The position numbers and the translations under genes are program-made. The notes under the pieces are model-generated. The model worked only from the letters and a program-made list of their open reading frames with translations, did not search any database and had not been told where the DNA came from. Of a stretch of DNA of 64,000 nucleotides, positions 19,730 to 28,290 are shown one piece after another. Source of the stretch: Escherichia coli (lineage in GTDB: Bacteria > Pseudomonadota > Gammaproteobacteria > Enterobacterales > Enterobacteriaceae); NCBI RefSeq assembly GCF_029227855.1, contig NZ_CP074356.1. The stretch is one strand, 5' to 3'. The stretch's first letter is position 1; the number at the start of each line of letters is the position of its first letter.

Positions 19730-22360
19730 ATGCGTAAATATCCTTTAAGTTTACTGAAGGATAAAAATATTGTGACTTTTTTTGATTTCTGGGGAAAAAC
19801 CCGACGCGGCGAGAAAGACGGGGGCGACGACTATCACCTTCTTTGCTGGCATTCGCTGGATGTAGCCGCGATGGGCTATTTAATGGTTAAAAGCAATTGC
19901 TTCGGGCTGACTGACTATTTTCGTCAACTAGGTTTCGCTGATACGGAGCAGGCAGCACAATTTTTCGCCTGGCTATTGTGCTGGCACGATACTGGAAAAT
20001 TTGCCCGCTCTTTTCAGCAACTTTACCTGCACCCACAACTCAAGGTTCCGGAAGGCGCAAGAAAGAATTACGAAAAGATCTCTCATTCAACGCTGGGCTA
20101 CTGGCTGTGGCATCATTATTTAAGTGAATACGAAGAATTGCTTCCTTCATCTTCACTCTCTCCGCGCAAACTTAAACGGGTGATGGAGATGTGGATGCCC
20201 ATGACTACCGGGCATCATGGTCGGCCCCCTGACCGTATTGATGAACTGGATAATTTTCTGCCTGAAGACAAAGCTGCCGCACGAGATTTTCTCCTTGAAA
20301 TCAAGGTACTGTTTCCGCTCATCGAGATCCCCGCATTCTGGGATGATGACGAGGGCATTGAACTTTTAAAACAACTTTCCTGGTATATCTCTGCAACCGT
20401 CGTACTCGCAGACTGGACGGGATCGTCAACGCGGTTTTTTCCACGCGTTGCACAGGCAATGGATATTAAAGATTACTGGCAGAAGGCTTTAGTTCAGGCT
20501 CAAAACGCCTTAACCGTCTTTCCTCCAAAAGCACAAACCGCGCCTTTCACCGGAATTAATACGCTGTTTCCTTTTATTGAGCACCCGACACCGTTACAGC
20601 AAAAGGTGCTGGATCTGGATATCAGCCAGCCTGGGCCACAGTTATTTATTCTGGAGGATGTGACTGGCGCAGGTAAAACAGAAGCGGCGCTTATCCTGGC
20701 CCACAGGTTGATGGCTGCGGGGAAAGCACAGGGTTTGTTTTTTGGCCTGCCAACAATGGCAACGGCCAATGCCATGTACGATCGGCTGGTAAAAACCTGG
20801 CTTGCTTTCTATTCGCCAGAATCCCGCCCCAGCCTGGTGCTGGCACACAGTGCCCGCACATTAATGGACCGCTTTAATGAATCACTCTGGTCCGGTGATT
20901 TAGTCGGGTCAGAAGAACCGGATGAACAAGCGTTCAGTCAGGGATGTGCGGCCTGGTTTGCCGACAGTAACAAGAAGGCGTTGCTGGCTGAAATTGGCGT
21001 CGGCACGCTGGATCAGGCGATGATGGCGGTGATGCCGTTTAAACATAATAATCTGCGGCTTCTGGGACTGAGTAACAAAATCCTGCTGGCTGATGAGATC
21101 CATGCCTGTGACGCTTACATGTCGTGCATTCTTGAAGGATTGATTGAGCGGCAGGCGCGTGGAGGAAACAGCGTTATTTTGCTTTCTGCCACGTTATCTC
21201 AACAGCAGCGCGACAAACTCGTTGCTGCCTTTGCGCGTGGTGCAGAGGGCCAGCAAGAAGCTCCGTTCCTGGAAAAGGATGATTACCCCTGGCTGACGCA
21301 CGTTACGAAATCGGATGTGCATTCACACCGGGTAGCAGCGCGCAAAGACGTTGAGCGTAGCGTGAGCGTGGGTTGGCTTCATAGCGAACAAGAGTGTATT
21401 GCGCGTATCGAATCGGCGGTAAGTCAGGGGAAATGCATCGCCTGGATCCGGAATTCTGTCGATGATGCTATTAAAGTTTATCGTCAGTTACTTGCCCGCG
21501 GCGTCATTCCTGCTTCCAGCCTTTCTCTTTTTCATAGCCGCTTTGCTTTTAGCGATCGCCAGCGAATTGAAACGGAAACGCTGGCACGCTTTGGTAAAGA
21601 AGATAGCTCACAGCGTGCCGGAAAAGTCCTCATTTGTACTCAGGTCTTAGAGTCGAGCGTTGATTGCGATATGGACGAAATGATTTCCGACCTTGCCCCC
21701 ATTGATTTGCTGATCCAGCGAGCGGGGCGATTACAGCGACATATCCGCGATATTAATGGTCAGTTAAAGCGTGACGGAAAAGACGAGCGTTCCCCTCCTG
21801 AATTGCTGATTCTGGCCCCCGTCTGGGACGACGCTCCAGGTGACGAATGGTTCGGCAGTGCCATGCGTAACAGTGCATATGTCTATCCCGATCATGGACG
21901 AATCTGGCTGACGCAGCGTGTACTGCGTGAGCAAGGCGCTATTCAAATGCCACACGCAGCCCGCCTTCTTATTGAATCAGTCTACGGTGAGGACGTGGTA
22001 ATGCCGGAAGGATTTGCCCGCAGCGAGCAGGAACAAGTGGGCAAATATTACTGCGATCGCGCAATGGCTAAAAAGTTTGTGCTGAACTTTAGGCCCGGCT
22101 ATGCCGCCAATATCAACGATTACCTCCCGGAAAAACTGTCGACACGTCTGGCTGAGGAGTCTGTTTCCCTGTGGCTGGCTACCTGTATTGCCGGTGTGGT
22201 GAAGCCTTATGCCAACGGTGCTCACGCATGGGAAATGAGCGTTGTCAGAGTGCGTCGAAGCTGGTGGAAAAACATCGGGATGAGTTTTCTTTACTGGAAG
22301 GGGAAGCGTTCAGGCAGTGGTGCATTGAACAGCGGAAAGATCCGGAGATGGCAAACGTGA
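19730..22360 (+). CDS. cas3: Cas3 HD-nuclease/helicase (type I-E); 3' end apparently frameshifted, with the conserved C-terminus continuing in the +1 frame to 22428
   Basis: 876-aa ORF with HD region (LLCWHSLDVAAMGYL...), DExH helicase motifs (GAGKTEAAL, LLADEIHACD). The last ~36 codons are low-complexity and basic, while ORF 22171-22428 in another frame encodes a tail resembling the K-12 Cas3 C-terminus. An in-frame GTG at 19772 is an alternative start. Confidence 0.85.
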   Translation: MRKYPLSLLKDKNIVTFFDFWGKTRRGEKDGGDDYHLLCWHSLDVAAMGYLMVKSNCFGLTDYFRQLGFADTEQAAQFFAWLLCWHDTGKFARSFQQLYLHPQLKVPEGARKNYEKISHSTLGYWLWHHYLSEYEELLPSSSLSPRKLKRVMEMWMPMTTGHHGRPPDRIDELDNFLPEDKAAARDFLLEIKVLFPLIEIPAFWDDDEGIELLKQLSWYISATVVLADWTGSSTRFFPRVAQAMDIKDYWQKALVQAQNALTVFPPKAQTAPFTGINTLFPFIEHPTPLQQKVLDLDISQPGPQLFILEDVTGAGKTEAALILAHRLMAAGKAQGLFFGLPTMATANAMYDRLVKTWLAFYSPESRPSLVLAHSARTLMDRFNESLWSGDLVGSEEPDEQAFSQGCAAWFADSNKKALLAEIGVGTLDQAMMAVMPFKHNNLRLLGLSNKILLADEIHACDAYMSCILEGLIERQARGGNSVILLSATLSQQQRDKLVAAFARGAEGQQEAPFLEKDDYPWLTHVTKSDVHSHRVAARKDVERSVSVGWLHSEQECIARIESAVSQGKCIAWIRNSVDDAIKVYRQLLARGVIPASSLSLFHSRFAFSDRQRIETETLARFGKEDSSQRAGKVLICTQVLESSVDCDMDEMISDLAPIDLLIQRAGRLQRHIRDINGQLKRDGKDERSPPELLILAPVWDDAPGDEWFGSAMRNSAYVYPDHGRIWLTQRVLREQGAIQMPHAARLLIESVYGEDVVMPEGFARSEQEQVGKYYCDRAMAKKFVLNFRPGYAANINDYLPEKLSTRLAEESVSLWLATCIAGVVKPYANGAHAWEMSVVRVRRSWWKNIGMSFLYWKGKRSGSGALNSGKIRRWQT

Positions 22361-22525
22361 TTTTAGTTACCGATGACGAAAGTTGCGGGTATTCGGCTAT
22401 GGAAGGATTGACTGGCAAGGTTGGTTGAGATGCCTGCGACAGGGCTCTCTGAATAGTTGATACACCGAAAAGGATGGAATGATGGACAACCGACCTGGGA
22501 TGGTCTTTTTTACGAGAGGATGCGT

Positions 22526-27080: not shown

Positions 27081-28000
27081 CGTTTGTACCACTGAGTCCG
27101 ATCCCGTTAAAAGATCGCACCTCTATGATCTTCCTCCAGTACGGTCAAATCGACGTACTGGACGGCGCTTTCGTGCTGATCGACAAAACCGGGATCCGCA
27201 CGCACATTCCGGTGGGATCGGTCGCCTGCATTATGCTCGAACCGGGAACGAGAGTTTCCCACGCGGCGGTGCATCTGGCCGCCACGGTGGGGACGCTACT
27301 GGTCTGGGTCGGTGAAGCGGGTGTTCGCGTCTACTCTTCCGGACAACCCGGTGGGGCGCGTGCTGATAAGTTACTCTACCAGGCAAAGCTGGCTTTAACG
27401 GAAGATCTACGTCTGAAGGTGGTGCGCAAAATGTATGAATTACGTTTTCGTGAGCCACCGCCAGCTCGCCGTTCAGTGGAGCAGCTACGTGGAATTGAGG
27501 GATCCCGCGTTCGCCAGACGTATGCATTACTGGCGAAACAATATGGTGTGAAATGGAATGGTCGCAAATACGATCCTAAAGACTGGGAAAAAGGCGATGT
27601 TGTGAATCGCTGCATCAGTGCTGCCACATCATGTCTGTACGGTATTTCTGAAGCGGCAGTATTAGCCGCGGGATATGCGCCCGCTATTGGATTTATCCAT
27701 AGTGGCAAACCGCTTTCATTTGTTTATGACATAGCCGATATCATTAAATTTGATTCGGTTGTGCCAAAGGCATTTGAAATAGCAGCGAGGCAACCCGCAG
27801 AACCAGATAAAGAAGTCAGGTTGGCCTGTCGTGATATTTTCCGTAGCAGTAAGTTAACGGGCAAATTAATTCCGTTAATCGAGGAAGTGCTTGCCGCAGG
27901 TGAAATTGAACCACCACAACCCGCGCCGGATATGTTACCGCCTGCCATCCCTGAACCTGAAACGCTGGGCGATAGCGGTCACCGGGGACGCGGCGGATGA
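27077..28000 (+). CDS. cas1: Cas1 integrase
   Basis: 307-aa ORF (GTG start overlapping casE stop) [49 protein letters not shown]...; near-identical to recalled K-12 Cas1. Confidence 0.95.
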
Positions 28001-28290
28001 GTATGGTCGTCGTTGTTACAGAAAATGTCCCTCCGCGCTTACGTGGACGGATCGCGATCTGGCTCCTGGAAGTGCGTGCCGGTGTTTATGTCGGAGATAC
28101 GTCCAAACGTATTCGGGAGATGATCTGGCAGCAAATCTCTCAACTGGCAGGTTGCGGAAATGTGGTAATGGCCTGGGCGACCAATACCGAGTCGGGTTTT
28201 GAATTTCAGACCTGGGGTGAAAATAGACGTATTCCGGTGGATTTGGATGGGGGGCGTTTGGTTTCTTTTCTTCCTGTTGATAATCAATAA
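27997..28290 (+). CDS. cas2: Cas2
   Basis: 97-aa [37 protein letters not shown]...; near-identical to recalled K-12 Cas2. Confidence 0.95.

Follow-up and report, generated by a model that had tools for sequence, protein, structure and literature searches.

The complete type I-E cas operon considered here, together with its CRISPR array, lies within a 64,000-nucleotide (nt) stretch of an Escherichia coli chromosome (contig NZ_CP074356.1, assembly GCF_029227855.1; hereafter the window), in which positions 19730-28290 span exactly the start of cas3 to the stop of cas2. Our reading of this locus, to which we assign a probability of about 0.85, is that the window carries the E1 cassette, that the K-12 cassette was swapped whole, and that slow evolution of Cas1-Cas2 together with shuffling of effector modules explains why the genes of the locus have diverged so unequally from their K-12 counterparts. 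Specifically, the operon looks odd next to its K-12 counterpart since the cassette there is of another type (cas-E2/cas-EK). Among related loci, as judged from neighbour-joining trees, the adaptation (cas1-cas2) and effector (cas3-cas6e) modules are shown to have incongruent phylogenies, with the joint between them at the boundary of cas6e and cas1.

The gene order of the region is cysJ-cysI-cysH, a hok-family toxin gene, cas3-cse1-cse2-cas7-cas5-cas6e-cas1-cas2, a leader, a CRISPR array and iap-cysD-cysN-cysC, such that the operon is sited between cysH and iap. The type I-E signature genes cse1 (cas8e) and cse2 (cas11), along with cas7e, cas5e, and cas6e, are present in the expected order, and all eight Cas proteins score above the curated type I-E NCBIfam cut-offs. 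The limits of the coding sequences and the hok call follow the annotation of the near-identical record of strain JNEC-KY178, which differs across 19730-28290 by one substitution and one 1-nt deletion. The features of the locus are listed below.

19383..19535, + strand: hok/gef-family toxin gene (JNEC-KY178 annotation; BLAST end-point of K-12 homology)
19730..22360, + strand: cas3 of E1 type, an open reading frame of 876 aa (NCBIfam cas3_core 218 bits and cas3_HD 89 bits, both above cut-offs)
22526..24088, + strand: cse1/casA (Cas8e), 520 aa (TIGR02547, 613 bits)
24085..24621, + strand: cse2/casB (Cas11), 178 aa (TIGR02548, 105 bits)
24636..25691, + strand: cas7e/casC, 351 aa (TIGR01869, 448 bits)
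25702..26448, + strand: cas5e/casD, 248 aa (TIGR01868, 157 bits)
26430..27080, + strand: cas6e/casE, 216 aa, last gene of the exchangeable effector module (TIGR01907, 284 bits)
27077..28000, + strand: cas1e, 307 aa, first gene of the adaptation module (TIGR03638, 381 bits)
27997..28290, + strand: cas2e, 97 aa (TIGR01873, 127 bits)
28291..28386, + strand: CRISPR2.1 leader (type A, from its association with GTG repeats; alignment, approximately 68% identical to the K-12 leader)
28387..29025, + strand: CRISPR2.1 array, 10 type-A repeats GTGTTCCCCGCGCCAGCGGGGATAAACCG and a terminal degenerate repeat

The E1 cassette and what was exchanged within E. coli

Each protein was aligned pairwise with its counterpart in the reference, K-12 MG1655, and local identity was recorded. 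The first-pass annotation, made from the letters of the window alone, had described the interference proteins as far from those of K-12, and this is borne out at 22-33% identity: 28.9% for Cas3, 21.9% for Cse1 (K-12 CasA), 31.3% for Cas7 (CasC), 33.3% for Cas5, and 28.0% for Cas6e, with no meaningful or significant pairwise protein alignment between Cse2 and CasB. The same annotation had the repeat belonging to the K-12 family, in agreement with the single difference found over 29 positions (GTG.. in CRISPR2.1, GAG.. in K-12). It also held Cas1 and Cas2 to be nearly identical to those of K-12 save for a handful of residues, which was an overstatement: 258 of 303 residues of Cas1 are identical (85.1%; 45 differences) and 79 of 94 of Cas2 (84.0%; 15 differences), the cas1-cas2 DNA is 71.7% identical with differences mostly at third codon positions, and synonymous divergence (dS) is saturated and inestimable for cas1 and reaches 2.3 for cas2, at a nonsynonymous divergence (dN) of 0.13-0.15. 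The contrast between the two modules (approximately 85% versus approximately 25%) is real and far beyond chance, and the adaptation module of the window is itself an old, diverged allele.

The flank proteins CysJ, CysI, CysH, Iap, CysD, CysN, and CysC are 98.2-99.8% identical to those of K-12, dS for cysJIH, iap, and cysDNC is 0.04-0.28, and the upstream flank DNA is 97.4% identical. The upper end of the dS range belongs to cysJ (14799-16598; 0.28, above the 0.04-0.13 of the other flank genes), and this excess may mean that another tract close to the cas genes has recombined on its own. The cas genes of the window have a GC content of 50-55% and those of K-12 43.5-51%. Two uses of these measures were set aside: dS as a clock for the E1/E2 split or the ages of the modules was ruled out since cas1 dS is saturated, and GC as proof of a chimeric K-12 cassette gives weak support, with cas1 at 51.3% versus 43.5-48% for the effector genes but GC at third codon positions at 42.8 versus 36-42.

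By BLAST, DNA homology to K-12 ends on the left at window position 19385, the start of the hok gene, no DNA alignment with K-12 is found across cas3-cas6e, and homology resumes at 27089, just inside the start of cas1, at approximately 72%. The K-12 array consists of twelve GAG repeats and a thirteenth of GTG type, after which come its final spacer and a degenerate repeat that closes the array. The last three elements match window positions 28936-29025 (last repeat, last spacer, and degenerate repeat); because this array end is common to the two genomes, the right junction falls inside the CRISPR2.1 array. The exchanged segment is the whole cassette, comprising the cas3 promoter, all eight cas genes, the leader, and most of the array. 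That the cassette and not the effector genes alone was swapped follows from the identity of cas1-cas2 (71.7%) set against that of the flank (97.4%). Thus, of the earlier proposal that recombination replaced the effector genes, recombination as the cause stands, and its restriction to the effector genes does not; cas1 and cas2 were swapped as well, and with them the leader and the greater part of the array. A pair of Pantoea loci provides a parallel: there cas1-cas2 stands at 71.7% identity beside flanks at 86.2%, a wide gap that points to a whole-cassette exchange as in E. coli.

Two cas-E variants have been described in E. coli (Almendros et al., 2014, mBio, PMC3903273): E1, the major cluster, which is also found in Salmonella and E. 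albertii and has a mean GC content of 53.5%, and E2, which is found in K-12, most group A strains, and E. fergusonii and has a mean GC content of 45.6%. These variants, named cas-EO and cas-EK by Díez-Villaseñor et al. (2013, RNA Biol, PMC3737337), have been linked to type-A and type-T leaders and repeats; each variant has its own leader and repeat type, and the K-12 cas genes have been described as “altogether replaced” (PMC3903273, PMC3737337). The system of the window is the published E1/cas-EO variant, as the first-pass annotation had recognized in pointing to a known second variant of the E. coli type I-E genes. Its genes are 86-99% identical in nucleotide sequence to those of O157:H7 strain 86-24 (94-99% without cse2) and 93-96% to those of E. 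albertii, and its repeats and leader are of the same variant, the 96-nt leader between cas2 and the first repeat being 95.8% identical to that of O157. Assignment to the E2/K-12 variant was rejected on the low identity to the K-12 cas genes, the absence of GAG repeats from CRISPR2.1, and the differing leader; likewise, the K-12-specific models fall below cut-off on the window proteins (PRK09693, 104 bits against 576; PRK09694, 423 against 569).

Comparison with the O157:H7 type reveals a common cysH-iap site, gene order, GTG repeats, leader, and a GC content higher than that of K-12; the window differs from it in the frameshifted 3' end of cas3 and in its cse2 allele (86.4%), and in nothing essential. 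With the K-12 type I-E system (E2; Cascade structures such as PDB 4QYZ) the window shares the subtype, the gene order, the repeat family, and the locus, but not the effector proteins (22-33%, with Cse2 unalignable), the cas1-cas2 DNA (72%), the leader, or the repeat variant. Among 5426 complete E. coli genomes, scored for carriage of at least 80% of either operon, the E1 operon is present in 2419 and the K-12 (E2) operon in 1114. The window therefore carries the majority variant, and K-12 is the exception. The E1 genes differ from those of a Salmonella locus, in which cysH and iap both flank the cas genes, about as much as cysH and iap themselves do (cas1 79.1%, cas2 78.8%, and cas7 79.1% versus cysH 82.6% and iap 76.8% nucleotide identity), and for that reason the E1 cassette looks like one passed down vertically from the common ancestor of Escherichia and Salmonella onward.

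The 5426 genomes were also screened by megablast with artificial E1/E2 cas6e-cas1 junction queries, in which identity discriminates (approximately 86.5% for the pure types, 97.4% for a hybrid), coverage being 100% even for pure types. No junction of E1 cas6e with E2 cas1 was found in this collection, the best match (86.6%) lying at the level of pure E1. The reciprocal junction, K-12-type cas6e with E1-type cas1, was found in a single genome, E. coli BS-04 (NZ_CP172819.1, GCF_044648255.1), at 97.4% over the full query. In BS-04, cas3-cas6e of K-12 length are followed by an E1 cas1, a cas2 whose product is identical to the Cas2 of O157:H7, and an E1-type leader, and the crossover lies approximately 30 nt into cas1 (codon 10-11 or thereabouts), in the conserved stretch encoding PLKDR (positions 9701-9735 of the extracted BS-04 locus, L084). 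BS-04 is, on its face, a natural hybrid of an E2 effector with an E1 adaptation module, as represented by a single and possibly chimeric assembly.

Histories of the effector and adaptation modules

Related loci were drawn from species-representative genomes as the best 80 by conserved Cas1 peptides, themselves taken from the Cas1 alignment. Neighbour-joining trees of the 69 complete loci were built from corrected p-distances with 200 bootstraps, the effector tree from Cse1, Cas7, Cas5, and Cas6e (1750 columns) and the adaptation tree from Cas1 and Cas2 (405 columns). DNA comparison of the loci with K-12 used cas1-cas2 only; whole-locus BLAST was swamped by CRISPR repeats.

Cas1 is 75-100% identical to that of the window in all 80 loci, out to Bordetella and Parasutterella, and Cas1 is exceptionally slow-evolving in this clade. 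The effectors fall into distinct lineages. An E1-close group (67-99% identical) comprises loci of Escherichia, Salmonella, Klebsiella, and Citrobacter; a broader set, labelled E3, is approximately 40-58% identical to E1; and an E2 lineage, approximately 26% identical to both of these groups, includes K-12, Citrobacter amalonaticus, Erwinia endophytica, a Pantoea, Marinomonas rhodophyticola, Oceanospirillum linum, and others. The effectors of a few further loci (including L053, L062, and L070) are approximately 30% identical to both E1 and E2. In Marisediminitalea aggregata (L064, 2575-9153) the genes stand in the rearranged order cas3, cas6e, cse2, cas7, cas5, cse1 and the effector proteins are 23-41% identical to both E1 and E2; its Cas1+Cas2 is 98.8% identical to that of an Alteromonas metagenome-assembled genome (MAG; L067), whose effector has the standard gene order. 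Two MAG contigs labelled “Bacillota bacterium” (L002) and “Collinsella sp.” (L075) bear E1-type cas genes with Cas1 identity of 99-100%, and these genes most likely represent Escherichia contamination of metagenome bins.

Across the 69 loci, Cas1-Cas2 tracks the taxonomy of the host, and the two trees disagree on where K-12 belongs. In the effector tree, K-12 joins C. amalonaticus with a bootstrap of 100, and monophyly of the E2 lineage is likewise supported at 100 (100 with Cas7 alone, 90 with Cas6e alone); in the Cas1+Cas2 tree, support for E2 monophyly is 0, and K-12 groups instead with L015, Citrobacter portucalensis, and Raoultella terrigena (K-12+L015+L026+L029; bootstrap 90), all three of which carry E3 effectors. 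Several further pairs that unite different effector lineages are recovered in the adaptation tree, namely in Marinomonas (100), Oceanospirillum (100), Citrobacter (99), and Methylophaga (86), as is the pair of Marisediminitalea and Alteromonas loci (100). The E1 locus of the window falls in the same clade in both trees (100). The cas1-cas2 genes nearest to those of K-12 by protein are also the nearest by nucleotide sequence (77-78.5%, versus approximately 72% for the window and C. amalonaticus).

Identity levels tell the same story: in same-genus pairs, Cas1-Cas2 at 93-99% identity stands beside effectors that are unrelated. Between lineages, effector identity stays at 23-29% across the whole range of Cas1+Cas2 identity from 70 to 95.5%: K-12 and L015 are 94.0% identical in the adaptation module and 26% in the effector, and the Marinomonas pair 95.5% and 27%. 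A similar gap exists inside the E1/E3 set, where a pair of Zobellella species has 99.0% identity in Cas1+Cas2 and 40.8% in the effector. At the DNA level, O. linum and O. maris share an upstream flank (78.7%) up to the start of cas3, their effector genes cannot be aligned, and homology returns at the first base of cas1 (81.3%) and continues through cas2 and the leader. Similar patterns are observed in the Citrobacter pair (flank 81.5%, cas1-cas2 76.4%) and the Methylophaga pair (flank 71.7%, cas1-cas2 76.5%). Replacement of the effector segment is most simply read from the Oceanospirillum, Citrobacter, and Methylophaga patterns, and effector-only replacement does occur in Oceanospirillum, Methylophaga, Zobellella, the Alteromonadaceae, and others, with at least eight candidate events among the 69 loci. 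Together with the E. coli and Pantoea exchanges, the alignments indicate that both effector-only and whole-cassette exchanges take place.

These observations suggest the following course of events. Within E. coli, the K-12 cassette would have taken the place of the whole segment that begins at the hok gene, upstream of cas3, and ends within CRISPR2.1, cas1, cas2, and the leader included. The unequal divergence of the modules would have two causes, the very slow evolution of Cas1-Cas2 in this type I-E clade and the repeated swapping of deep cas3-cas6e lineages (approximately 26% identical) beside a resident adaptation module and array; given swaps at the cas6e-cas1 joint, the Cas1-Cas2 tree would track the host and not the effector. 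The K-12 cassette itself looks chimeric, pairing an E2-lineage effector with the cas1-cas2 of enterobacterial loci that carry another effector lineage, and an effector-only swap probably took place in its donor lineage also, where it would have built the cassette before entry into E. coli. Exchange presumably proceeded by homologous recombination through the conserved 5' end of cas1 or the CRISPR repeats on one side and the flanking chromosome on the other, although the direction and order of events are our inference. As to a selective driver, escape from anti-CRISPR proteins, which Makarova et al. (2025, PMC12669027) suggest for module shuffling in general, could be proposed for these swaps as a hypothesis only.

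Three alternative accounts deserve weight. Were the unequal divergence a matter of rate alone, with whole cassettes diverging under stronger purifying selection on Cas1-Cas2 and no exchange of modules, one would expect the conservation of Cas1 seen here (at least 75% identity in 80 of 80 loci) and the difference within the E1 lineage itself, in which comparison with Salmonella gives 96% for Cas1 and 75-76% for Cse1. Such an account is difficult to reconcile with the fall of E2 monophyly from 100 to 0 between trees and the same-genus pairs of mixed effectors (86-100), with between-lineage effector identity that stays flat at approximately 26% whatever the identity of Cas1+Cas2, or with Oceanospirillum, in which flank and cas1-cas2 stand at species-level identity beside effectors devoid of DNA homology. 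Rate heterogeneity is clearly a contributing factor but probably not the sole cause, and as a complete explanation we regard it as quite improbable. A somewhat less improbable, though still unlikely, account makes the adaptation module the mobile partner: complete systems would arrive and then have their cas1-cas2 rewritten, through gene conversion, with the copy of a type I-E system that is resident or co-resident, which would make Cas1-Cas2 uniform within a host clade. Clustering of Cas1-Cas2 by host genus fits this account, as does the Marisediminitalea/Alteromonas pair, in which cas1-cas2 (87.5% nucleotide identity) is closer than the flank (67.6%); against it, flank, cas1-cas2, and leader are comparable in the Oceanospirillum, Citrobacter, and Methylophaga pairs and only cas3-cas6e lacks homology. 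Either way the outcome is the same, modules of different history joined at cas6e-cas1.

The remaining alternative concerns E. coli alone, and holds that only the effector genes were replaced there while the resident cas1-cas2, leader, and array were kept. K-12 homology does resume just inside cas1 (27089), Cas1 and Cas2 are far closer to K-12 than are the other Cas proteins, and events of this kind exist elsewhere and once in E. coli (BS-04). Yet cas1-cas2 at 71.7% identity and saturated dS contrasts with flanks at approximately 97% and dS of 0.04-0.28, the leader is only approximately 68% identical and the repeat variant differs, the Cas1 of K-12 groups with other enterobacterial genera and not with E1 Cas1, and a single hybrid junction was found among the 5426 genomes. 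We consider this the least credible of the three, and very improbable, and favor exchange of the entire cassette in E. coli.

Several points weigh against our interpretation. Choosing the best 80 loci through Cas1 peptides biases the sample toward conserved Cas1; the trees are neighbour-joining rather than maximum likelihood and come without a formal topology test; and the Cas1+Cas2 alignment offers only 405 columns, the K-12+L015+L026+L029 grouping falling to 68% with Cas1 alone. In addition, no flank homology was found for the Marinomonas pair, so that an in situ swap is unsupported there, the BS-04 hybrid depends on the one assembly described above, and no donor of the E2 cassette came to light, the closest cas1-cas2 being only 77-78.5% identical in nucleotide sequence. 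The broader proposition that cas3-cas6e is an exchangeable cassette, swapped repeatedly across Gammaproteobacteria beside a slow, host-tracking unit of cas1-cas2, leader, and array and always joined at cas6e-cas1, that K-12 is chimeric, and that substitution of Cas1 residue 287 (Q287L) may explain the use of the spacer-acquisition motif CWT, is in our judgment only slightly better than an even bet.

Cas1 residue 287, arrays, and other observations in the window

The motif recognized in spacer acquisition is CWT for cas-EO, as determined experimentally in O157:H7, and CTT for cas-EK (PMC3737337). By alignment, the Cas1 catalytic residues E141, H208, and D221 are invariant, as are R138, Y165, K211, Y217, and I291, which contact the strand bearing the protospacer adjacent motif (PAM). 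The sole PAM-contact residue that differs is 287, a glutamine in K-12 and a leucine in the window, which is described as stacking against the central T in the CTT strand (PMC8390960). Leucine is found at this position in 11 of 11 E1-close loci; glutamine is found in K-12 and, among the 58 loci that fall outside this clade, in 42. As a correlation, this distribution suggests that Q287L may explain the acceptance of CWT by E1 as opposed to CTT only.

The CRISPR2.1 array comprises ten 29-nt repeats and 32-nt spacers with a period of 61 nt (28387-28964). All ten repeats begin with GTG on the cas strand, ending in ..CAC when read on the complement, and the four leader-proximal ones (28387-28598) carry ..ATAAATCG; the array is divided into four leader-proximal units with ..GGGGATAAATCG and six older ones with ..GGGGATAAACCG. 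A mutation that arose in the first repeat was apparently propagated whenever a further spacer was acquired, and since it is shared by four leader-proximal units, at least four acquisitions would have followed its appearance. JNEC-KY178 possesses an extra 61-nt repeat-spacer unit in the leader-proximal position (28386/28387) that is absent from the window, which reflects either a very recent acquisition in that strain or a loss in the window. A second, cas-distant array was assigned its position from synteny, its K-12 equivalent being the array that lies between ygcE and queE:

2109..2686, + strand: second type I-E array, 10 GAG-type repeats (CRISPR2.2/2.3 position)

Within the operon itself, cas3 bears a 1-nt deletion at 22267, in a run of A residues at 22263-22267 (five here, six in JNEC-KY178). 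The frame is shifted after residue 846, such that the final 53 aa are replaced by a 30-aa tail and the protein is 876 rather than 899 aa in length; an intact cas3 would end at 22428. Profiles match both the HD and helicase core domains of the predicted protein, and the frameshift either is real, inactivating the C-terminal domain of Cas3, or stems from a sequencing error in the homopolymer. The cse2 gene, 86.4% identical to that of O157:H7 strain 86-24 where the adjacent cse1, cas7, and cas5 are 96-99% identical, is 99.4% identical to the cse2 of an Escherichia sp. locus (L004). It is a local mosaic inside the E1 variant, in line with the recombination in the Cascade region reported by Almendros et al. 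(PMC3903273). Between cysH and cas3 the hok/gef-family gene is intact; of this region K-12 retains the sokX RNA alone. Finally, chain E of PDB 9uer (Cse4/Cas7 protein) is a close match to Cas7 of the window over its full 351 aa (631 bits), and structural data thus exist for an E1-lineage Cascade subunit.

Relation to known systems and biological meaning

The phenomenon described here has a counterpart in the sister genus Salmonella, in which two profiles, cas-STM and cas-STY, occupy one locus, with Cas1 82.5-87% identical between them and cse2 and cas3 far apart (Kushwaha et al., 2020, Sci Rep, PMC7712790). The cas genes of the window resemble the cas-STM-like locus of S. enterica subsp. diarizonae (Cas1 96%, Cas7 86%), and the second Salmonella profile, judged from reported identity levels, looks E3-like (approximately 40-58% to E1) and not K-12/E2-like. 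The Klebsiella pneumoniae “I-E*” system was rejected as a counterpart of one of the lineages, its Cas1 being reported as 35% identical to I-E Cas1 and thus outside the clade.

That effector modules are shuffled in situ has recently been presented as a general trend (2025, Nat Microbiol, PMC12669027). As in that study, closely related cas1 genes are found here beside distant effector genes at the same place; there, the example is Cas9 in subtype II-C and cas1 is tallied against cas8, cas9, cas10, or cas12, whereas the present exchanges run between lineages of subtype I-E, at a fixed cas6e-cas1 joint, and involve the K-12 model system. In our limited literature search, no publication was met that places the K-12 adaptation module among loci of another effector lineage, though an earlier description may exist. 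The feature in the window is a known variant of a known system and effector-module shuffling is a known process; the K-12 chimera, the recurrent I-E swaps at a fixed joint, the E. coli hybrid, and the residue-287 lead are new instances of that recognized process and not biology of a new kind.

What these instances mean for the study of type I-E systems stems from the position of K-12, the workhorse of that field, which carries a minority cassette. With the interference proteins in most E. coli strains at only 22-33% identity to those of K-12, rules of PAM recognition, Cascade structure, sensitivity to anti-CRISPR proteins, and regulation as established in K-12 may not transfer to these strains. 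Furthermore, the separate histories of the two modules bear on the co-adaptation of Cas1-Cas2 with Cascade-Cas3, for example in primed adaptation, and on effector swapping as a route of escape from anti-CRISPR proteins, a driver that is at present hypothetical.

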